This document shows positions 4,411 through 57,261 of a stretch of DNA of 64,000 nucleotides, in pieces (the first letter of the stretch is position 1; each line of letters opens with the position of its first letter). The notes below the pieces were generated by a model. That model worked only from the letters and a program-made list of their open reading frames with translations. It had not been told where the DNA came from and searched no databases. Where the stretch lies: assembly GCA_044377715.1 (NCBI GenBank), contig JBILYN010000001.1, positions 13,892 through 77,891 of the forward strand, given 5' to 3'. This stretch comes from Aquabacterium sp. Its GTDB lineage: Bacteria; Pseudomonadota; Gammaproteobacteria; Burkholderiales; Burkholderiaceae_C. Made by a program: the position numbers and the translations under genes.

Positions 4411-5892
4411 ATGCAGCTGGACCTACCGCGCCTGGTGATGCGGCGAGCCGGCTCAGTTGCCGCAGCGGTGCTGTTGTTGGCGCTAGGCTTGGGTCTGGCG
4501 CGCATGGGCGCGGACATCGACGACGAGGTCGATGCTGCGGTCACGCTGGCCCAATGGATGGCCAAACTGACTGCTGCGGCGCCGCTCGACGACGCCGCCG
4601 CTTTGGGCGAGCTGCGCAAGCTCTTGGCCGATCACCCGCCGCGCCATCTGCTGCTCAGCGTGCAAGACGGCGACGGCCGATTGCTGCTGGTGCCACCAGC
4701 GCCGCAGCCGACCACAGCGCTGGACGGACTGCTGGCACTGCATCGCCGCTTGCTCTCGGCGCCTGACGCGCGTCAGGTCAGCTGGGACCTGCTGCGGCCT
4801 GGCGGCGCGCGCTGGACCGTCACGCTGACGGCATCGCACGAGAGCGAACGCCGCGAGGCGATGGTCAACCTGGTCGGCACGCTGGCGCTGCTGCTGGCCT
4901 GCATCGCCGGGCTGCTGCTGGCGATGCGCTGGAACCTTCGCCGGGCACTGGCGCCGTTGGACCGCTTGCTGGCGGCGATCGACGGCATCGAAGGCCATGA
5001 TGCCCAGGCTGTTCAGGCCTTGCCGGCGATGCCGGTTCGCGAACTCGAGACCTTGGCTTCAGCCTTGCGCCATCTGGGTGGCGCGCTCGATGCCGCACAA
5101 GCACAGCGGCGCCTGCTCAGCCAGCAAGTGCTGACGCTGCAGGAGGACGAGCGCGCCCGATTGGCGCGCGAACTGCACGACGAGTTCGGGCAGCGCCTGA
5201 CGGCTTTGCGCTTGGATGCGGTCTGGCTGTCGCACCAAGTTGCAGGACAGCCCTTGCTCATGCCGGTGGTCGAGGGCATGGCACGACAGTGCGCGCTGGT
5301 CCAGCAAGACATCCGCTCGCTGCTGTCGCGGCTGCAGCCCTTTGGTCACGACGACGATGCCCACAGCGAGAGCCTGTTGCGACTGGTCTCCTTGTTGCGC
5401 GCGCTGGTGGCCAGCTGGATCCAGCCTGGTCGTGGGCAGGCTACGGTCTGCCGGCTCGATCTGCGCTGGCTGGATTCGGACGGCCAGCCCATCGCCTGGC
5501 CCAACGACGATGCCGCAGAGGACTTGCGGCTGACGGGCTCGCTGGCGCTGGCGATTTACCGCATCAGCCAGGAGGCGTTGACCAATGTCGCCCGCCATGC
5601 GCAGGCCAGTGTTGCGACGCTGGCGCTCAGTTGCCGGGGCGACACCAGGCCTGGCGCGCCGCTGCGCATCGATTGGTCGGCCAGCGACGACGGCGTCGGC
5701 CTGATTGATGCCGAGGCAGTGAGCCAGCGCGGCAAGGGCATCTCCGGCATCCAGGCGCGGGTTTGGGCCCAGGGCGGCGAGCTTTGCTGCGAGCCCTTGC
5801 AAGCCGGCAGCGCAAACCCCGGTCTGCGGCTGTCGGCCAGTTTCAGGAGCACCTGGTGTACGAAGAGCGTGCTGCGGGAGGCCCACCCATGA
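4411..5892 (+). CDS. Membrane sensor histidine kinase, HisKA_3 (MoxY/NarX-like) with HAMP
   Basis: Two TM segments, HAMP-like LAPLDRLLAAI, H-box LARELHDEFGQRLTAL, N-box IYRISQEALTNVARHA, DDGVG, GKGISGIQARV. Confidence 0.9.
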   Translation: MQLDLPRLVMRRAGSVAAAVLLLALGLGLARMGADIDDEVDAAVTLAQWMAKLTAAAPLDDAAALGELRKLLADHPPRHLLLSVQDGDGRLLLVPPAPQPTTALDGLLALHRRLLSAPDARQVSWDLLRPGGARWTVTLTASHESERREAMVNLVGTLALLLACIAGLLLAMRWNLRRALAPLDRLLAAIDGIEGHDAQAVQALPAMPVRELETLASALRHLGGALDAAQAQRRLLSQQVLTLQEDERARLARELHDEFGQRLTALRLDAVWLSHQVAGQPLLMPVVEGMARQCALVQQDIRSLLSRLQPFGHDDDAHSESLLRLVSLLRALVASWIQPGRGQATVCRLDLRWLDSDGQPIAWPNDDAAEDLRLTGSLALAIYRISQEALTNVARHAQASVATLALSCRGDTRPGAPLRIDWSASDDGVGLIDAEAVSQRGKGISGIQARVWAQGGELCCEPLQAGSANPGLRLSASFRSTWCTKSVLREAHP

Positions 5893-6035
5893 CCGTCTCG
5901 GTGATGCGGGTCGACGAACATGCTTTGGCGATGTCGGCTGATCGGCGCCGGCACTCGCTCGATCGGGTCCTGCAAACTGCCCGATGCCGTGGCCTGGATA
6001 CCTGCTGGTCAAGCTGTTTGACCGTTGAAGCTTGA
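5889..6035 (+). pseudogene. Probable remnant of a NarL/LuxR-type response regulator
   Basis: ATG overlaps the kinase TGA (ATGA). MTVSVMRVDEHAL resembles a receiver N-terminus (MxIxVMLVDDHAL). The ORF stops after 48 codons. Confidence 0.45.
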
Positions 6036-6045
6036 GCGTTGAGGG

Positions 6046-6121
6046 CTCTCGAGTAAATGTGGCTTGGCCACTTTGCTTGACCCCCCATGGGGGGCGGCCG
6101 GCGTCGGCCGGCCTCGGGGCG
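6046..6121 (-). repeat. 75-nt triple-hairpin dispersed element, copy 1 (76 nt, most diverged)
   Basis: Reverse complement is CGCCCCGAGGCCGGCCGACGCCGGCCGCCCCCCATGGGGGGTCAAGCAAAGTGGCCAAGCCACATTTACTCGAGAG; matches copies at 15140, 40002, 50122 and 56319. Confidence 0.95.
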
Positions 6122-6136
6122 CTCAGTGCCGCGGGC

Positions 6137-14767: not shown

Positions 14768-15270
14768 CGTCCTGGTGAGGCCTGCCAGCCGGTGCGCTGG
14801 CTGACGAAATCCACGATGTGCTCGATCGCCCGCCCCGACTCGGGCAGGAATGGCGTGACCTGGAACACATGCGGGGTTTCGGGCCAGATCGACCTCGACA
14901 TCGACACCTGCGGCATGGGCTTTGTGCGCGACGCGAACCGCTTCGTCGCGCAGCAACTCGGAGCTACCGGCCTGCAGCAACAGCGGCGGGAAGCCGATGA
15001 AATCGGCAAACAGCGGCGACACCTCGGGGTGGGTGTAGAGCGCAGGCGATGGCACATAGTGTCCTCTCAGCACCAACAGGTTGCTCAGTCGCAGCACCGG
15101 GTCGCTGTGCTGGTTGTCGACCATGCTCGGGCTGCTGAGCGCCCCAAGGCCGGCCGAAGCCGGCCGCCCCCCGTGGGGATCAAGCAAAGTGGCAAAGCCA
15201 CATTTGCTGGAGAGGGTGCAGTCCACCGCCGGTGACGGAGCACCGCGCAGGCCGGCATCGGCTCGCCGCG
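14764..15270 (-). pseudogene. C-terminal remnant of an HSL-family alpha/beta hydrolase (esterase), two frameshifts plus an in-frame 75-nt insertion
   Basis: Reconstructed as RGEPMPACAVL/SPAVDCT[insert]LSSPSMVDNQHSDPVL..VSPLFADFIGFPPLLLQAGSSELLRDE..AGVDVEV/IWPETPHVFQ. The HGGG and GDSAG motifs are absent. Confidence 0.8.
15140..15214 (+). repeat. 75-nt triple-hairpin dispersed element, copy 2 (inside the esterase remnant)
   Basis: CGCCCCAAGGCCGGCCGAAGCCGGCCGCCCCCCGTGGGGATCAAGCAAAGTGGCAAAGCCACATTTGCTGGAGAG. Confidence 0.95.
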
Positions 15271-35952: not shown

Positions 35953-36689
35953 TCAACGAAAACCTGCACAAGCAAGCGGTCGCACTCGACCGCGTCAAAC
36001 ATCGCGAGCTCAAGCTCAATCTCGAACAGCGCGACCTCAGCGTGATGTCCACGCTGAATGCGTTCTTTGTCGCGGGCACCGAGTTCACCGACGCCTGCAA
36101 GGAATTCCCCGTGGTCTGGGTCAACGCCGGCAAGGACGATGCCGGCAAAGTGCAGGTCGCGCCGGTCGCGGTCTTTGGCTTGCAGGTCGGGCAGAACCTG
36201 TGCATCGAGGGCAATGCCTGGCGCGTGCGCTACGTGCCGGCGATGTTGCGGCTCTACCCCTTCGCGCTGGCCCGGGTGGCGGCCGACGAGATGGTGGTCT
36301 GCATCGACGAAGCCTGTTCCGGGCTTGGGGCCGAGGGCCAGGCCTTGTTCGATGCCAACGGCGAACCCACCGAATTCACCAAGACCGTGCAGCAGCAGCT
36401 CGAAACCTTTGAGTCCGAGATCGAGCGCACCCGCATGGCTGGTGCGCTGCTGGTCGAGAAGGACTTGCTGCGCGACATGCGCTTCGACGCGACCTTGCCC
36501 GATGGCACCAAGCTCGGGGTTGATGGCTTCCTGACGATCGATGAGCAAAAGCTCTCGGCGCTGTCGGACGCCGATGTGTTGATGCTCAGTCGCAACGGTT
36601 TGCTGGGTTTGATCCACGCGCACCAGATATCGCTCGGCAACATGGGCCGGTTGGTGGAGTGGCATGTCGAACGCCAAGCGGCGGCCTGA
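35949..36689 (+). CDS. SapC family protein
   Basis: EFTDACKEFPVV, PVAVFGL, YVPAMLRLYPF, IDEQKL, AHQISLGN; ATGA overlap with the upstream gene. Confidence 0.85.
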   Translation: MINENLHKQAVALDRVKHRELKLNLEQRDLSVMSTLNAFFVAGTEFTDACKEFPVVWVNAGKDDAGKVQVAPVAVFGLQVGQNLCIEGNAWRVRYVPAMLRLYPFALARVAADEMVVCIDEACSGLGAEGQALFDANGEPTEFTKTVQQQLETFESEIERTRMAGALLVEKDLLRDMRFDATLPDGTKLGVDGFLTIDEQKLSALSDADVLMLSRNGLLGLIHAHQISLGNMGRLVEWHVERQAAA

Positions 36690-36782
36690 TCCTGGGCCTA
36701 GCACCTACGGACTGGCGCTTAGACATGAAGCGGTCGTCTCCGCGCACAATCGCCCACGCTTAGACCTTCTGGAGATTCCACC

Positions 36783-37949
36783 ATGACGAGACGAAATCAC
36801 TTGCTGACCCTGGCCACCTTGTCGCTGGGCGTTCTGGCCGGCGGCGCAGTGCGGGCCGAGGACAGCGTCAAGATCGGCGTGATCCTGCCGATGACCGGCC
36901 CATCGGCGTCCACCGGCCGCCAGATCGACGCTGCGATCAAGCTGTGGATGGCGCAGAGCGGCGGCAAGGCCGGCGGCAAGAAGGTCGAGGTCATCATCAA
37001 GGACGACGCCGGTGTGGCCGACACCACACGCCGCTTGGCGCAGGAGTTGGTGGTCAACGACAAGGTCGTTGCGCTGGCGGGTTTCGGCTTGACGCCCTTG
37101 GCCTTGGCCACGGCGCCCATTGCCACCCAGAGCAAGACCCCGATGGTGGTGATGGCGGCGGCGACCTCGATGATCACCGAGGCCTCGCCCTACATCGTTC
37201 GCACCAGCTTCACGCTGCCGCAGGTGTCGATCGGCATCGCCGAATGGGCGGCCAAGAACAAGATCAAGAAGGTCGTCACGCTGGTGGCCGACTACGGCCC
37301 GGGCAACGACGCCGAGAAGTTCTTCTCAAGCCAATTCCAGCTCAACGGCGGTGTGATCACCGACAAGCTGCGCACGCCGCTGCGTGGCGCCGACTTCGCG
37401 CCGGTATTGCAGAAGGTGCGCGACTTGTCGCCGGACGCGTTGTTTGTCTTCCTGCCTTCGGGCCAAGGCGCGCAGTTCATGAAGCAGTTCGGTGAGCGCG
37501 GCCTGGACAAGGCCGGCATCAAGCTGATCGCCACCGGCGACGTCACCGACGACGACCAGTTGAACGACATGGGCGATGTCGCGCTGGGCGTGGTCAATTC
37601 GCACCACTACTCGGCGGCGCACAACAGCGCGGCCAACAAGAAATACGTCGCCGATTTCCAGGCGGCCAACAAGTTCAGGCCCAATTTCATGTCGGTCGGC
37701 GGCTACGACGGCATGCGCGTGATCTTCAAGGCGCTAGACACCACCAAGGGCGTCGGTGGCGACGCGCTGTTGGCGGCGATGAAGGGACAGATCTTCGAGA
37801 GCCCGCGCGGCCCGGTGCTGATCGACGCCCAGACCCGCGACGTGGTGCAGGACGTCTACATCCGCAAGGTGGAGAGGGTCAACGGTCAGCTCTTCAACGT
37901 CGAGTTCGACACGATCAAATCGGTGAAGGATCCCGGCAAGTTGAAGTAA
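36783..37949 (+). CDS. Branched-chain-type ABC substrate-binding protein, aromatic-acid (benzoate/hydroxybenzoate)-binding subgroup-like
   Basis: VKIGVILPMTG, GFGLTPLALA, MAAATSMITEASPYIVRTSFTLPQ, DYGPGND, FESPRGP; the subgroup call is from memory. Confidence 0.8.
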   Translation: MTRRNHLLTLATLSLGVLAGGAVRAEDSVKIGVILPMTGPSASTGRQIDAAIKLWMAQSGGKAGGKKVEVIIKDDAGVADTTRRLAQELVVNDKVVALAGFGLTPLALATAPIATQSKTPMVVMAAATSMITEASPYIVRTSFTLPQVSIGIAEWAAKNKIKKVVTLVADYGPGNDAEKFFSSQFQLNGGVITDKLRTPLRGADFAPVLQKVRDLSPDALFVFLPSGQGAQFMKQFGERGLDKAGIKLIATGDVTDDDQLNDMGDVALGVVNSHHYSAAHNSAANKKYVADFQAANKFRPNFMSVGGYDGMRVIFKALDTTKGVGGDALLAAMKGQIFESPRGPVLIDAQTRDVVQDVYIRKVERVNGQLFNVEFDTIKSVKDPGKLK

Positions 37950-37950
37950 T

Positions 37951-38025
37951 CCCCAAAGGCGGCCTGCGGCCGCTCCCCCCGAGGGGGCGACGCCAGCCCG
38001 GCAGAGCCGGTTCCGCGGCGTCTGC
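37951..38025. repeat. GC-rich multi-hairpin REP/MITE-like element (family 2)
   Basis: Hairpins GCGGCC-TGC-GGCCGC, CCCCC-CGA-GGGGG, and GACGCC..CCGGC-AGA-GCCGG..GGCGTC directly after the SBP stop. Only one copy in the window. Confidence 0.6.
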
Positions 38026-38073
38026 TTGCTGCGACGCCCTCAGTGTGCCTTCCGCGACGACCCGCCCGATCCC

Positions 38074-38946
38074 ATGCTGACCCTTCTCTTCGACGGCATT
38101 GCCTACGGCATGCTGCTGTTCGTGCTGGCGCTCGGGTTGGCCGTCACGATGGGCTTGATGAACTTCATCAACCTGGCCCATGGCGCTTTCGCGATGGCCG
38201 GCGGCTACATCCTGATCGTGCTGATGCAGCGCGCAGGCTGGCCTTTCCTGGCCTGCCTGCCGGCGGCTTTCATCGCCACCGCGGCCGCCGGCGCGCTGCT
38301 CGAGCGTCTGGTCTACCGACGGATGTACGGCAAGCCTCACCTCGACCAGGTGTTGTTCTCGATCGGCCTGACCTTCATGGCCGTGGCCTCGGTCGACTTC
38401 ATCATGGGCAGTTCGCCGCAGAACGTCCAGTTGCCGGACTGGCTGCGTCAGCGCTTCGAATTCGGCACGGGCGCGTGGATGCTGGGCATGGGGGCGTACC
38501 GCGTGTTCATCATCGCGACCTGCTTCGCACTGGCGCTGGGGCTGCAGGCGGTGCTGACCCAAACCCGTTTCGGCAGCCGGCTGCGCGCCGCAGTCGACGA
38601 CCCGCGGGTGGCTGCCGGGCTGGGCATCCCGGTGAACCGAATCTTCCTGCTGACCTTCGCGGTGGGCTCGGGCTTGGCAGGACTGGGCGGTGCGCTGGGC
38701 GCCGACATCCTCGGGCTGGACCCGAGCTTTCCTTTGAAATTCATGGTCTATTTCCTGATCGTTTGCGCCGTGGGTGGCACCAGTTCGATCACCGGCCCGC
38801 TGGTGGCTGCGTTGGTGCTGGGCATTGCCGACGTGATGGGCAAGTACTACATGCCCAAGCTCGGCGCTTTCATCGTCTATGTGCTGATGATCGCGATCCT
38901 GCTGTGGCGGCCGCAAGGCTTGTTCTCGCGCGAGGGCAAGAAATGA
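38074..38946 (+). CDS. Branched-chain-type ABC permease (LivH)
   Basis: LFDGIAYGMLLF, FINLAHG, FGSRLRAAVDD, VCAVGG, RPQGLF. Confidence 0.92.
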   Translation: MLTLLFDGIAYGMLLFVLALGLAVTMGLMNFINLAHGAFAMAGGYILIVLMQRAGWPFLACLPAAFIATAAAGALLERLVYRRMYGKPHLDQVLFSIGLTFMAVASVDFIMGSSPQNVQLPDWLRQRFEFGTGAWMLGMGAYRVFIIATCFALALGLQAVLTQTRFGSRLRAAVDDPRVAAGLGIPVNRIFLLTFAVGSGLAGLGGALGADILGLDPSFPLKFMVYFLIVCAVGGTSSITGPLVAALVLGIADVMGKYYMPKLGAFIVYVLMIAILLWRPQGLFSREGKK

Positions 38947-38947
38947 G

Positions 38948-39024
38948 AGCCCCGAGCTCACTGCGTTCGCTGCCCCAGGGGGCCTGCAGCCCCCTTGGGA
39001 CGACCCGGCGGAGGCTGCAATGAG
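38948..39024 (+). repeat. 77-nt palindromic insert (family 3) flanked by an AATGAG direct repeat, encoding a 26-aa relay ORF (38943..39023)
   Basis: AATGAG at 38942-38947 and 39019-39024; internal stems GGGGGC/GCCCCC and TGCAGCC/GGCTGCA; ORF MRAPSSLRSLPQGACSPLGTTRRRLQ*. Confidence 0.75.
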
Positions 39025-39996
39025 CCGCGCAAGCGCGACCAGCTTGCTGGCGCCGTCGAAGTGGCGGCTCTGGGAAATCGTCTTGTGGGCGGCGATCTGG
39101 GGCGCGACCATCGTGTTTGGCCAGCATGCGGCGCTGGTCAACGAGATCGCGATTCTGGCGCTGTTCGCACTCTCGCTCGACCTGATCCTGGGCTATGCCG
39201 GCATTGTCTCGCTAGGACACGCGGCATTTTTTGGCGTCGGTGCTTACGGCGCGGCGCTGTTCGCCAAGCATGTGATGCCCGATCCGATGGTCGGATTGGC
39301 CGTGGGTGCAGGCCTGGGCGCGTTGCTGGGTCTGGTCACCAGCCCGATGATCGTGCGCGGTACCGACCTGACCCGGCTGATGGTGACGATGGGCGTGGCC
39401 CTGGTGCTGCTGGAGTTGGCCAACAAGTTCGACGGCCTGACTGGCGGCACCGACGGGCTGCAAGGTGTGGTGATGGGCCCGTTGCTGGTCCCGTTCGTCG
39501 GTCGCTTCGAGTTCGACCTGGGCGCAAGGGTGGCATCGTTCTATTCGCTGACGGTGCTGTTCATCGCCTTCTTGCTGCTGCGCCGCATCGTCCATTCGCC
39601 GCTCGGCATCTCGCTGCAGGCCTTGCGTGATAACCGGCTGAGGTTGATGGCGATCGGGCTGTCGGTCAACAGCCGACTGGCGGCGGTCTACACGCTGGCG
39701 GCTGGGCTGGCCGGCGCGGCCGGGGCCTTGCTGGCGCAGACCACCGGATTCGCTTCGCTCGATGTGCTTGAATTTCACCGCAGCGCTGACGTGATGCTCG
39801 CACTGGTGATCGGCGGCGCCGGCTGGCTGTGGGGCGGGTTGGTTGGGGCGATCGCTTTCAAGGTCTTGCACGACTTGATCTCGTCCTTCACGGCCCAGTA
39901 CTGGACCTTCTGGATCGGGCTGTTCCTGGTGCTGCTGATGCTGGTCGGGCGCGAGCGGCTGTTCCGGCCTTGGTCCTGGTTCAAGCGGGGTCAGCC

Positions 39997-40000
<4 letters not shown>
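39020..40000 (+). CDS. Branched-chain-type ABC permease (LivM)
   Basis: GYAGIVSLGHAAFFGVGAY, GGTDG, ALRDN, LVIGGAG. Confidence 0.92.
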
Positions 40001-40867
<867 letters not shown>

Positions 40868-40875
<8 letters not shown>

Positions 40876-41578
40876 GAACCTGCTCGAGGTGCACGGCCTG
40901 AGCTGCGGCTACGGCGACGCCGTGGTGCTGACCGACGTCAGCTTCAGCTTGGGCATGGGTCGTTCGCTGGCTTTGCTGGGTCGCAACGGCACCGGCAAGA
41001 CGACCCTGATCGACACACTGGTGGGCGTGACGCGCCGCCATGCCGGCCGGGTCATGCTGGCCGGGCGCGAGATCCAAGAGCTGCCGGTCTACGCCCGGGC
41101 TGGTGCGGGTTTGGGCTGGGTGCCGCAGGAGCGCAACATCTTCAAGTCGCTGACCGTCGACGAAAACTTGAGCGCCGTGGCCAGGCCTGGGCCCTGGAAT
41201 GCCCAGCGCGTTTTTGAGCTGTTCCCCCGCCTGGCCGAGCGCAAGAAGAACCTCGGCACCCAGTTGTCGGGCGGTGAGCAGCAGATGCTGGCTTTCGGCC
41301 GCGCGCTGGTGCTCAACCCGCGCTTGCTGCTGCTCGACGAGCCGCTCGAAGGCCTGGCGCCGATCATCATCGAAGAACTGCTGCGTGCGATCCGCCGCGT
41401 TGCGCGTGAGGAAGGCTTGTCGTCTATCGTCGTCGAACAGCATCCGCACATGGTGCTGGGCGTGACCGACGACTGCATCGTGCTCGACCGTGGCAGCATC
41501 GCTTACCGTGCCGACAGCGCTGTCCTGCTTGACGATCCGGCGCCGCTGGATCAGTGGCTGGGCGTCTCGGCGCAATGA
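40868..41578 (+). CDS. ABC ATP-binding protein (LivF)
   Basis: GRNGTGKT, WVPQERNIF, LSGGEQQML, LLLDEP, VEQH. Confidence 0.92.
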
Positions 41579-42726
41579 ATCAACCATCCAAAATCCTGGA
41601 CACCAATATGACGCTTCGAACCAAACCGCCTTTTCGCGCCGACCATGTCGGCAGCTTTCTGCGCCCGAAATACCTGCTCGACGCGCGCGAGCAGTTCTTC
41701 GTCAAGAAGGAAATCACTGCCGAGCAACTGCGCCTCGTCGAGGACAAGGCGATCACCGAGATCGTCAATTTCCAGCAAGATGTCGGGCTTCAGAGCATCA
41801 CCGACGGTGAGTTCCGCCGCACCTATTTCCACATCGACTTCCTGGCCCAGCTCGGTGGCGTCAAGACCGACATCCCGGTCACGGTGCTGCGGCCTGACGG
41901 CACCGAGGAACTCGCGCCACCGGTGATCCGCGTGATCGACAAGGTGCGCCATACCAAGAACATCCAGCTGGCCGATTTCGAATACCTCAAGAGCCAGGTG
42001 GCGGTAGGCTTGACGCCCAAGGTGACGATTCCGTCGCCGACGATGCTGCACTTTCGGGGCGGGCGTGCCGGCATCAACCGCGAGGCATACCCCGAACTTG
42101 ATCCGGTTTTCTACGACGACGTGGCCGAGGCCTATGGCCAGGAGTTGCAGTCGCTGGCCGATGCTGGTTGCAGCTATGTGCAGATGGACGACACCAACCT
42201 GGCCTACCTCTGCGACGAGAAGATGCGCGAAGCCGCCAGGTCGCGCGGTGACGACCCCAACGAGTTGCCGCACCGCTACGCTGCGTTCATCAACAAGGTC
42301 GTGGCCTACAAGCCTGCTGGTATGACGCTGGCGATGCACCTGTGCCGGGGCAACTTCAAGAGCACGCACGCTGCGGCCGGCAACTACGAGCCTGTGGCCG
42401 AGGCCTTGTTGTCTGAGATGAACCTCGACGCATTCTTTCTCGAATACGACGACGAGCGATCGGGCGATTTCCGGCCGCTGCGCTTCCTGACCAAGGGCAA
42501 AATTGTCGTTCTCGGTCTGGTGACGACCAAGTTCGGCGAGATGGAAAGCAAGGACGCGCTCAAGCGACGGATCGACGAAGCGGCGAAGTACGCGCCGCTA
42601 GACCAACTGGCTTTGAGCCCGCAGTGCGGTTTTTCCAGCACCGTTCACGGCAACAACATCGCCGTCGAAGCCCAGCGCGCCAAGCTTCGACTGGTGATCG
42701 AGACAGCCCAGGAAGTCTGGTCCTGA
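41575..42726 (+). CDS. Half-size MetE-like Zn-dependent methyl/alkyl transferase (YxjH/YxjG-type, Meth_synt_2 domain only)
   Basis: PFRADHVGSFLRP, ITDGEFRR, MHLCRGN (HxC), FFLEYD, LSPQCGF. ATG overlaps the livF TGA; alternative start at 41608. Confidence 0.85.
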   Translation: MNQPSKILDTNMTLRTKPPFRADHVGSFLRPKYLLDAREQFFVKKEITAEQLRLVEDKAITEIVNFQQDVGLQSITDGEFRRTYFHIDFLAQLGGVKTDIPVTVLRPDGTEELAPPVIRVIDKVRHTKNIQLADFEYLKSQVAVGLTPKVTIPSPTMLHFRGGRAGINREAYPELDPVFYDDVAEAYGQELQSLADAGCSYVQMDDTNLAYLCDEKMREAARSRGDDPNELPHRYAAFINKVVAYKPAGMTLAMHLCRGNFKSTHAAAGNYEPVAEALLSEMNLDAFFLEYDDERSGDFRPLRFLTKGKIVVLGLVTTKFGEMESKDALKRRIDEAAKYAPLDQLALSPQCGFSSTVHGNNIAVEAQRAKLRLVIETAQEVWS

Positions 42727-49106: not shown

Positions 49107-50120
49107 ATGAACATGAAGATCGCCATCGTCGGCGCGGGCGCCATCGGCGGTTACCTGGGCGCGAGGCTGGCTGCGGCGGGCGAGGACGTCACGTTCATCG
49201 CCCGCAACCGCAACCTGGCCGCCATCAACGCCCATGGTTTCAGGCTGATCCTGGAGGACGGCAGCACACTGCACGCGTCCAAGGTTCGCGCGGTCGAGCA
49301 AATGGCCGATGCTGGGCCACAGGACGCCGTGCTGCTGACCGTCAAGGCACACCAGGTTCGCGATTTGTTGCCGGCGCTGCGCGCGCTGTTCGGTCCACGC
49401 ACGCTGCTCGTGACGATGATCAACGGCGTGCCCTGGTGGTATTTCCAGAAGCTGGCCGGGCCTTATGAAGGCCGGGCGGTGACCCGCGTCGACCCTGACG
49501 GCGTGCTGGCTGCGGGCATCGAGACCGAGCGCATCATCGGCAGCGTGGTCTACCCGGCGGCCGAGTTGGTCGAACCGGGCTTGGTGCGGGTGATCGAGGG
49601 CAACCGTTTCACGCTGGGCGAGCTCGACGGCAGCCGCAGCGAGCGTGTCGAATCGCTGTCGCGTGTCTTCATGAATGCCGGCTTCAAGTCGCCAGTGTCG
49701 CGCGACATCCGGGCCGAGCTCTGGGTTAAGCTTTGGGGCAACCTGAGCTTGAACCCGATTTCGGCGCTGACCCACGCGACCTTGGAAGAGATCTGCCGAT
49801 TCCCGTCGACGCTCGCGCTGGTCGAACGCATGATGACCGAAGGCCAGTCGGTGGCCGAGGCATTGGGTGTGCGTTTCAAGATCTCGCTGGCCCAGCGAAT
49901 CGCCGGCGCTGAGGCCGTCGGTGCGCACAAGACTTCGATGCTGCAGGATGTGGAGAGCGGACGCGCGCTGGAACTCGAAGCGCTGGTCGGTGCGGTGGTC
50001 GAACTCGGGCAGATCACCGGAACGCCGACGCCGACCATCGAAGCGATCCATGCGGTCACCAGCTTGCTCGGTCGAACGCTGACGCAGCGTCATGGGCGGC
50101 TGGCGTTGCAGCCGATCTGA
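49107..50120 (+). CDS. Ketopantoate reductase family protein, probable oxalyl-CoA reductase (PanE2-like)
   Basis: MKIAIVGAGAIGG, NGVPWWYF, WVKLWGN, HKTSMLQDVE, LELEAL; start 49107 or 49113. Confidence 0.8.
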   Translation: MNMKIAIVGAGAIGGYLGARLAAAGEDVTFIARNRNLAAINAHGFRLILEDGSTLHASKVRAVEQMADAGPQDAVLLTVKAHQVRDLLPALRALFGPRTLLVTMINGVPWWYFQKLAGPYEGRAVTRVDPDGVLAAGIETERIIGSVVYPAAELVEPGLVRVIEGNRFTLGELDGSRSERVESLSRVFMNAGFKSPVSRDIRAELWVKLWGNLSLNPISALTHATLEEICRFPSTLALVERMMTEGQSVAEALGVRFKISLAQRIAGAEAVGAHKTSMLQDVESGRALELEALVGAVVELGQITGTPTPTIEAIHAVTSLLGRTLTQRHGRLALQPI

Positions 50121-50121
50121 C

Positions 50122-50196
50122 CGCCCCAAGGCCGGCCGAAGCCGGCCGCCCCCCGTGGGGATCAAGCAAAGTGGCAAAGCCACATTTGCTTGAGAG
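50122..50196 (+). repeat. 75-nt triple-hairpin dispersed element, copy 4
   Basis: Begins 1 nt after the panE2-like TGA stop; lies between convergent genes. Confidence 0.95.
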
Positions 50197-50221
50197 CGAT
50201 CGCCGCTGCTGGCTGCGGAGC

Positions 50222-56318: not shown

Positions 56319-56393
56319 CGCTCAAGCAAATGTGGCTTTGCCACTTTGTTTGACCCCCATGGGGGGCGGCCGGCTTCGGCCGGCCTCGGGGCG
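56319..56393 (-). repeat. 75-nt triple-hairpin dispersed element, copy 5
   Basis: Begins 1 nt after the btuF-like TGA on the minus strand; lies between convergent genes. Confidence 0.95.
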
Positions 56394-56394
56394 A

Positions 56395-57261
56395 TCAGTG
56401 CCGCGCGCGGTCTATCGCTTCGCACAGCGCTTGCGCGCCGTCGACGAACGCAGGTGTCATCCGCGCCAGCCGGTGGCCTGGCAAAGCCACCAGTTGGCCG
56501 CGCCGAACCGCATCGACGCGGTTGAAACGCCGCCACATGTCGAGCCGGGCCGGTTCGTTGGCCTCGGCGCCAGTGACGACGATCTGCGGGTCGGCGGCGA
56601 TCGCGGCTTCCCAACCCACCGTCGGGGTCTGCGTGGGCTGGCTGCCGAAAACGTTGACACCGCCGCAGGCGCTGATGGCCTCGGCGATCCCGTGCTTGTC
56701 GTTGACCGTCATCAGCGGCTCGTGCCAGAGCTGGTAGAACACACGCACGGGTGTCCGGCCGGCGTAGCGTTCGCGCAGCGCGGCCCAGCGTGACTCGGTC
56801 CGCCCGGCTGCAGCCTCGGCGGCTCGCTCGGTGCCAAACAAGCGTCCGAATTGACGCAGTGTCTGGGCAATGCCTGCCACGCTGCTGATCTCGCTGGCGT
56901 ACAGCGGCAGGCCTAGCGACGGCAGCCGCTGCTGTTGGCGCGGGTTGACGCCGCTGGTCCAGACCAGCAGCAGGTCCGGTCGCAGTGCGGCGATGGCCTC
57001 GAGGTTGATCGCAAACGCGTCGCCGACCACCGGTAGCTTGGTGGCTTCGGCCGGGGAGTCGCTGTATCGCATCACGCCGACCAGGCGGTCACCGGCGCCG
57101 GCGGCAAACACCAATTCGGTCAGATGCGGTGACAGCGCCACTGCGCGGCGCGCCGGGCCCGCGAGCGTCAGCGCCTGGCCGGCATCGTCTTGCAGCGTCA
57201 CCGCAGCATAGGCATTGGACAGGCCGGCCAGCAGCACGGCACCCAACAACCAGCACCTCAT
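56395..57261 (-). CDS. Cobalamin-binding periplasmic protein (BtuF-like)
   Basis: RRAVALSPHLTELVFAAGAG, LEAIAALRPDL, EAISACGGVNVF, WEAAIAADP. ATG overlaps the nth TGA. Confidence 0.82.
   Translation of the reverse strand: MRCWLLGAVLLAGLSNAYAAVTLQDDAGQALTLAGPARRAVALSPHLTELVFAAGAGDRLVGVMRYSDSPAEATKLPVVGDAFAINLEAIAALRPDLLLVWTSGVNPRQQQRLPSLGLPLYASEISSVAGIAQTLRQFGRLFGTERAAEAAAGRTESRWAALRERYAGRTPVRVFYQLWHEPLMTVNDKHGIAEAISACGGVNVFGSQPTQTPTVGWEAAIAADPQIVVTGAEANEPARLDMWRRFNRVDAVRRGQLVALPGHRLARMTPAFVDGAQALCEAIDRARH

Follow-up and report, generated by a model that had tools for sequence, protein, structure and literature searches.

A BRE-related repeat at the livH-livM junction of an Aquabacterium genome carries a mini-ORF that may relay translation between the two genes

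REP/BIME sequences are short, GC-rich palindromic intergenic repeats that often lie just 3' of stop codons and are associated with RAYT transposases; REPs can affect translation and mRNA stability. The REP itself is a single palindrome of 20 to 40 nt with a conserved GTAG-type head, is found in both orientations, and does not involve translation of a relay ORF. Rickettsia palindromic elements (RPE) insert inside genes and stay open in frame. Mycobacterial interspersed repetitive units (MIRUs) insert at start codons, where an internal ORF is coupled to the gene, which probably minimizes the impact on expression (2025 review, PMC12548453). For this statement the review cites Supply et al. 1997, and the subject is also covered in PMC3184786. 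The two sources describe the MIRU as a co-oriented operon repeat of 40 to 100 bp with a small ORF that overlaps the flanking stop and start codons, with short direct repeats and with both filled and empty sites, and preservation of translational coupling is its proposed role (PMC12548453, PMC3184786). A fourth repeat, the Beta-proteobacterial repeat element (BRE), is a dispersed, GC-rich sequence of 75 to 91 bp that lies mostly between genes, sometimes forms tandem arrays, and has no known function (Hot et al. 2011, BMC Genomics 12:207, PMC3110155). It sometimes overlaps the ends of ORFs by a few bases, and small transcripts, BprJ1/J2, have been detected from a BRE locus (PMC3110155). The 2011 paper proposes no function for the BRE and reports neither relay ORFs nor co-orientation with genes, and our literature search for the core sequence described below, or for relay ORFs in beta-proteobacterial repeats, returned nothing beyond Hot 2011 and Delihas 2011, which both mention the BRE and neither of which mentions relay ORFs. 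The relay concept is already established for mycobacterial MIRUs.

We analyzed a stretch of 64,000 nucleotides from Aquabacterium sp. (assembly GCA_044377715.1, contig JBILYN010000001.1, positions 13,892 to 77,891 of the forward strand; referred to here as the window), in which two ABC permease genes, livH and livM, are separated by a short spacer with the following features.

38026..38946, plus strand: LivH/UrtB-type ABC permease gene (TIGR03409, 2e-54; NF008011 LivH, 1.5e-21)
38942..38947, plus strand: left copy of the AATGAG direct repeat, holding the livH TGA and the mini-ORF ATG 38943
38943..39023, plus strand: relay mini-ORF of 26 codons plus TGA, read by translation, sharing ATGA with the livH stop at one end and with the livM start at the other
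38948..39018, plus strand: body of a BRE-related repeat, between the AATGAG copies (42.7 bits with the family profile; E 1.7e-10 in a search of the whole genome)
38950..38983, plus strand: conserved 5' block CCCCGAGCTCACTGCGTTCGCTGCCCC (family consensus CCCCCACGCTCACNNNGTTCGCTGCCCC) and hairpin 1
38985..38994, plus strand: stem 2 left arm TGCAGCCCCC, pairing at 9/10 positions with 39010-39019
38995..39009, plus strand: conserved stem-2 loop TTGGGACGACCCGGC (family TTSGGGCGGCCSGGC), with a small inner hairpin inside
39010..39019, plus strand: stem 2 right arm GGAGGCTGCA, with an SD-like GGAGG at 39010-39014, 5 nt before the livM ATG
39019..39024, plus strand: right copy of the AATGAG direct repeat, holding the livM ATG 39020 and the mini-ORF TGA 39021
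39020..40000, plus strand: LivM/UrtC-type ABC permease gene (TIGR03408, 9e-31; NF008450, 1e-22)

The livH ORF as listed runs from TTG 38026 to TGA 38944-38946, and its true start is likely ATG 38075. Read directly, the 3' end of livH is aaATGA, and the ATG within it (38943-38945) opens the frame MRAPSSLRSLPQGACSPLGTTRRRLQ*, whose TGA (39021-39023) overlaps the ATG at 39020-39022, the earliest possible start in the livM frame. The geometry reported in the initial annotation, in which livH ends in A-TGA and a 26-codon ORF runs from ATG 38943 to a TGA lying over the livM ATG, is therefore correct. The AATGAG copies are spaced 77 nt apart, and excising 77 nt yields aaATGAGCCGC, the form of relatives with an empty site. 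In a promoter and terminator scan of 38700-39300, nothing resembled a promoter, and the insert contained no convincing terminator. For a single ATGA...ATGA duplication such as that at livH-livM, the chance of a relay frame is ~1 in 3, and the element is stop-free in its forward frames, so the locus alone is not significant; the significance of the frame match comes from the family to which the insert belongs. Upstream of the junction, the sequence encoding the livH C-terminal motif ILLWRPQGLF (38883-38923) has many 35- to 40-nt matches at 88 to 95% identity in relatives. The matches come from paralogous LivH-type permease genes and do not mark a repeat element.

The insert region (38940-39011) matches dozens of unrelated sites in genomes of the same genus. 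By BLAST, the insert is single copy in the window's own, fragmented genome; it could not be found there as a BLAST-detectable multicopy repeat, and a profile was needed to detect ~6 more, degenerate copies. Six copies from same-genus genomes were aligned to define a conserved core, and the exact 28-nt core pattern CCCCCACGCTCACNNNGTTCGCTGCCCC, which includes neither end of the element, was scanned in contigs from one genome per species. This pattern occurs at at least 120 loci across Betaproteobacteria. The genera among the matches listed include Burkholderia, Trinickia, Achromobacter, Rubrivivax, Ideonella, and Caldimonas, along with Ramlibacter, Rhodoferax, Thauera, Zoogloea, and Methyloversatilis and many MAGs. 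A family profile built from 74 canonical copies covers nearly the full length of the window insert. The same profile matches four Bordetella pertussis BRE sequences (Hot et al. 2011, List S1) on the reverse strand, at E-values of 1.5e-9 to 2e-6, in an alignment spanning ~70 positions (CCCCCACGCT...GCTGCCCCCCGAGGGGGC...CCTTGGGCGGCC). The link between the window and BRE is thus made in two steps, from the window to the profile and from the profile to BRE, with no direct pairwise match. The window insert resembles BRE in its GC-richness, its length (77 nt), its dispersed distribution, the occurrence of tandem arrays in its family, and its host group, the Betaproteobacteria; like BRE, which sometimes extends into the ends of ORFs, it reaches over the livH stop codon and the livM start codon. 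The Bordetella BREs differ in having two extra insertions (of 5 and 4 bases) in the first half. Their arms consist of A/T runs where the window's family has the GC-rich stem 2, and neither an ATG nor a TGA stands at their ends. From the profile matches, the 77-nt spacer is a copy of a small, structured, nonautonomous mobile repeat of Betaproteobacteria that is related to BRE.

Tandem arrays of the family have periods of ~72 to 82 nt, with L086 (1028-1367) and L150 (4637-4850) at 78 nt. Several arrays share this 78-nt period (L086, L150, L036, L048, and L105), and because it equals 26 codons, one frame can stay open across a whole array. With regard to the terminal inverted repeats and fixed-length target duplication of MITEs, the window copy has GCTCACTGC/GCAATGAGC, an inverted match of 8/9 positions, together with the AATGAG duplication. 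The flank common to the whole family is only ATG(A). We looked for a transposase between two inverted copies at one locus (L062), and the genes there encode an amidase and a TctC receptor. Three copies (L060, L107, and L135) carry the same nested insertion of ~105 nt (GACACCCGCGCGAGCAGGGCGAAGCCAAGGCCCGCAGGGCGCG...), located ~28 to 150 nt past the core; it resembles a second small element inside the first, and the relay frame is kept in two of the three.

Two hairpins follow the conserved 5' block. Hairpin 1 has the family form GCCCCC-N3-GGGGGC, which in the window is CCCC-A-GGGGGC, minus 3 loop bases. Stem 2, of 9 to 10 bp, sits between hairpin 1 and the downstream start throughout the family, and in the window its right arm ends at the base preceding the livM ATG, and the SD is paired in the predicted fold; the predicted local fold of the window insert has an energy of -24.9 kcal/mol. 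The left arms of stem 2 are hypervariable, with 77 different sequences in 90 copies, yet they remain complementary to their partners: arms of the same copy pair at 8.3/10 positions, compared to 5.0/10 between copies. When 71 distinct copies are aligned without gaps, 91.5% of stem-2 cells pair, compared to 60% in shuffles and 34 to 52% with slid partners, and 270 cells have changes on both sides where 91 are expected. The covariation score of 0.716, against 0.159, was reached by none of 500 shuffles. The inner pair 13-22 switches as well, being C-G in 35 copies and G-C in 33. The hypervariable arms caused RNAalifold, with a MAFFT alignment as input, to miss stem 2, which anchor-based extraction recovered. 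Roughly one-third of stem-2 right arms (family copies L042-L161) resemble Shine-Dalgarno sites. In one relative carrying the insert at the same junction (G030), the arms of stem 2 have partly decayed to ~6 to 7 pairs out of 10, so the stem is not strictly kept in the lineage of the window.

The relay layout seen at livH-livM was analyzed in 95 nontandem copies with enough flanking sequence, all from other genomes and with gene neighbors called by a GC3-based frame caller. These copies are essentially independent loci, as they belong to 93 different flank clusters, and the ends of the element are unbiased observations because the search pattern includes neither of them. An ATG lies 3 to 12 nt 5' of the core in 98/123 copies. 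The element lies between two codirectional genes on its own strand in 71 of the 95, compared to five with both neighbors on the opposite strand. A relay, defined as a mini-ORF (median, 26.5 codons) that opens at or beside the upstream stop and whose own stop lies beside a start in the frame of the downstream gene, is present in 60/95 copies. The remaining copies run in frame into the downstream gene (11/95), have no co-oriented downstream gene (11/95), show another outcome (9/95), or have no start codon (4/95). Three junction offsets predominate at both ends: -1 (ATGA; 15 left ends and 15 right ends), +2 (TGATG; 12 and 10), and +4 (TGAnATG; 21 at each end). The left and right geometries match within the same copy in 22/54 cases, against 9.6 expected (p=1e-4), a pattern consistent with some copies having duplicated a target ATG(A) and with a terminal CTGA borne by the element. 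Of the seven degenerate copies in the genome to which the window belongs, six retain, on inspection by eye, the stop/ATG...TGA/ATG arrangement. The comparison across copies supports the relay layout as the rule across the family rather than an accident of the livH-livM insert. The view expressed in the initial annotation that the mini-ORF was created by this particular insert does not hold up; a mini-ORF of this kind is the usual design of the BRE-related family. The layout could have arisen through targeting of start codons by an element with its own terminal stop, through survival of only such copies in operons, or through both. At a LivH-type/LivM-type junction in Trinickia mobilis (L053, ~5690-5830), a family copy forms an in-frame fusion and not a relay.

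We consider it probable that the insert at livH-livM acts as a translational relay, including a hand-over of ribosomes from one gene to the next. A ribosome ending livH would re-initiate at ATG 38943 and translate the element, melting on its way the ~10-bp stem in which the livM Shine-Dalgarno sequence lies and which borders the livM ATG; the ribosome would then terminate on the livM start codon and re-initiate there. The original coupling of livH to livM would in this way outlast the insertion. The peptide itself would be irrelevant, and what would matter is that the mini-ORF is translated. Relay coupling, as put forward in the initial annotation, is supported by comparison, both among the five orthologous insertions described below and across the family, and the re-initiation of ribosomes is a step that we infer from the geometry. 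Some independent initiation of livM from the GGAGG 5 nt before its ATG is possible.

The alternative that fares best takes this last point further: the insert would be tolerated because its own GGAGG starts livM independently, and the open mini-ORF would be a by-product of GC-richness and of the ATGA duplication. The GGAGG (39010-39014) is at ideal spacing from the livM ATG, and a frame match at a single locus has the ~1-in-3 chance given above. Moreover, each of the three forward frames through the element body lacks stop codons in 94 to 97% of copies, against 83% in shuffles, and because these frames are almost always open, openness alone says little. Agreement in frame between the left start and the right stop is more telling, because the distance from start to core ranges from 3 to 12 nt and that from core to stop from 38 to 192 nt. 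(Shifting the start by +1 or +2 is unsuitable as a frame control, since ATGA puts a TGA at the head of frame +1.) The two distances compensate modulo 3 (table [[27,8,5],[5,3,12],[2,13,3]]; chi-square, 36.8; p=2e-7), and the frame is shared in 52/78 copies (p<=5e-5 by permutation), including copies with internal insertions of 21, 27, 30, 90, and 105 nt. The per-copy count is inflated by subfamily descent: counted by distinct length combinations, only 25/50 are in frame against an expectation of 1/3, a weaker signal, and inheritance of an in-frame layout within a few subfamilies could account for part of the family frame signal. Neither the frame compensation nor the excess of relays over fusions (60:11) is expected if translation of the mini-ORF is irrelevant. 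In addition, base pairing within the stem (9/10 pairs) takes in the SD and the nucleotides leading up to the ATG, and an SD-like motif precedes the downstream start in only 19 of the 60 relay copies. Independent initiation as the whole explanation is for these reasons unlikely.

A second alternative holds that the element is mainly a structural module acting at the level of RNA or of single-stranded DNA, for example as an mRNA stabilizer, a processing site, or a transposase substrate. Stem 2 and the inner hairpin covary strongly, the 5' block is highly conserved across genera, and the small transcripts BprJ1/J2 come from a BRE locus (Hot et al.), all of which speak for a structural role. Such a role is compatible with the relay explanation and does not exclude it, and by itself it leaves unexplained the stop/start geometry at both ends and the frame compensation; an Rfam scan of 36000-42000 (E<=1) returned nothing. 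We regard a mainly structural module as quite improbable, and we assign a similarly low probability to its corollary, that the mini-ORF merely permits residence in operons and plays no part in the level of livM expression. That the mini-ORF encodes a functional small peptide is very improbable: five orthologues and most copies of the family retain the ORF, but the spacing from start to core varies from 3 to 12 nt and takes all three classes modulo 3, so the frame through the conserved core varies between copies and the peptide sequence is not conserved, and the mini-ORF peptide has no match in Pfam.

The relay explanation presupposes an insertion into a coupled gene pair, and the history of the junction was followed in 60 related genomes, of which 17 gave the orthologous livH-livM junction in a search; these were aligned on the correct strands. 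At 12 same-genus loci there is no spacer, and the livH stop overlaps the livM start as ATGA or GTGA. These empty sites carry a single (A/G)TGAG(C), as in GGCAAAAAATGAGCGTC (G033), and the window's livM ATG 39020 aligns with the ATG or GTG that overlaps the livH stop in them. Four genomes without a spacer (G036, G026, G012, and G032) have longer, in-frame LivM N termini behind an ATGA/GTGA-type overlap. An insert of 77 to 80 nt is present at exactly the window's position in four relatives (G030, G014, G002, and G031), which with the window makes five filled loci. In all five, ATGA is found at both ends and the frame of the left ATG is open, ending at the TGA that overlaps the livM ATG. This frame persists despite ~13 to 40% divergence and a 3-nt indel in the loop; it is still open in G031, whose insert has only ~60% identity. 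The 6-bp target duplication proposed in the initial annotation is accurate for the window, where AATGAG flanks the insert on both sides. Across the filled orthologues it shortens: ATGAG is duplicated in the window, G030, and G014, the sixth base is shared by the window and G030 only, and ATGA alone is duplicated in all five.

As read from these alignments, the comparison shows that the insert landed exactly on an ancestral ATGA stop/start overlap of livH and livM, duplicating ATGA(G). Insertion at an ATGA junction, which had been proposed from the window alone, is thus borne out by the 12 empty-site orthologues. A maximum-likelihood tree built from flanking coding sequence groups the window with G030 and G014 in one clade (100/100 support), places the empty G009 as sister to this clade, and puts the filled G031 elsewhere, in a polytomy. 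Because of the placement of G009 and G031, the filled state needs two events, which could represent either two insertions into this junction or a single gain combined with a precise loss. Although one of these two changes may be a loss (the empty G009 lies inside the filled group), an ancestral spacer that the relatives lost, with no insertion at all, deserves almost no credence, as the 12 loci with a direct ATGA/GTGA overlap, against 5 filled, include all deep branches, the sequence belongs to a repeat family dispersed at unrelated loci, and a short direct repeat flanks the insert.

A second case of insertion is provided by gatA-gatB. In Burkholderia ambifaria RZ2MS16 (L162, 470-620), the TAA stop of gatA is gone, and GatA reads through the element to end at a TGA 2 nt before the gatB ATG, with an element-encoded C-terminal tail of ~28 residues. 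Three empty relatives with 98% identical GatB (L163, L164, and L177) have the plain junction GTGTAAGC(AT/AC)ATG, and the B. ambifaria insertion shows no clean target duplication. An independent, relay-type copy lies at the same gatA-gatB junction in Achromobacter sp. MYb9 (L233); BRE-like insertions at this junction thus arose independently in two different families. It had been suggested from the window that elements keep coupling by two routes, a relay peptide or an N-terminal extension, the latter exemplified by livG. In-frame fusions do occur within the BRE-related family (11/95), and the livG case itself belongs to a different repeat family. A third route, judging from the reading frame at B. 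ambifaria gatA, is C-terminal extension of the upstream gene.

The livG-proximal repeat (D1) is ~80 nt long and lies right after the livM ATGA, at 39997-40080. Its copies are 92 to 98% identical and are also found at 15136-15218 and 50118-50200 and, inverted, at 6035-6126 and 56321-56398. ATG 39997 reads through D1 in frame into a LivG-type ATPase whose conserved domain begins near 40078, and GTG 40081 is an alternative LivG start. On the other side of livH, the spacer between the substrate-binding-protein gene and livH (37950-38074) contains a GC-rich hairpin element (GCTCCCCCCGAGGGGGCG...GGCCCGGCAGAGCCGG) that has only the hairpin-1 motif in common with the BRE-like family and resembles a copy at G000:C326. 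It shows no relay geometry, with no ATG near the TAA. We considered the junction elements at 37950-38025 and 39998-40080 as members of the BRE-like family, and the family profile does not support either.

Compared with the systems outlined at the outset, the BRE-related family is closest in layout to the MIRUs. It shares with them the placement between codirectional genes and co-orientation with them (71/95 versus 5/95 copies), the small ORF joining an upstream stop to a downstream start (in the window and in 60/95 family copies), and filled and empty sites with a short direct repeat, ATGA(G) at livH-livM. It belongs to another phylum, and the likeness that we claim is functional only, a relationship in sequence being probably absent. 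The family also differs from MIRUs in its strongly covarying hairpin over the downstream ribosome-binding region and in a 5' block common to many genera. The window unit differs from the REP type in combining a conserved block with two hairpins over 77 nt and in having no GTAG head, and its family, unlike REPs, shows a strong orientation bias. Coding absorption, as in RPEs, is seen in the 11/95 N-terminal fusions and in the C-terminal extension of gatA, but copies of the BRE-related family are located where two genes meet, and most of them form a mini-ORF of their own.

A broader reading, which we offer tentatively and with somewhat less than even confidence, is that BRE-type elements are mobile translational relay cassettes, spread across Betaproteobacteria, that target the start codons of operon junctions, are kept by selection, and impose strict coupling instead of only preserving it. 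If this is true, translation of a mini-ORF of irrelevant sequence opens a covarying hairpin in which the downstream ribosome-binding site is otherwise locked, and the element would be a portable regulator of subunit stoichiometry and a second, independent invention of the MIRU strategy.

These data provide BRE with a specific role that can be tested, and they illustrate how a mobile element may settle in operons without polar damage, by having ribosomes handed across it. Confirmation of the relay would add a second example of the MIRU strategy, unrelated to the first and extending over many genera, and annotators would then need to cease labeling such spacers as untranslated or fusing them into neighboring genes. 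The unit of hairpin and mini-ORF could also serve synthetic operons as a natural translational-coupling part.
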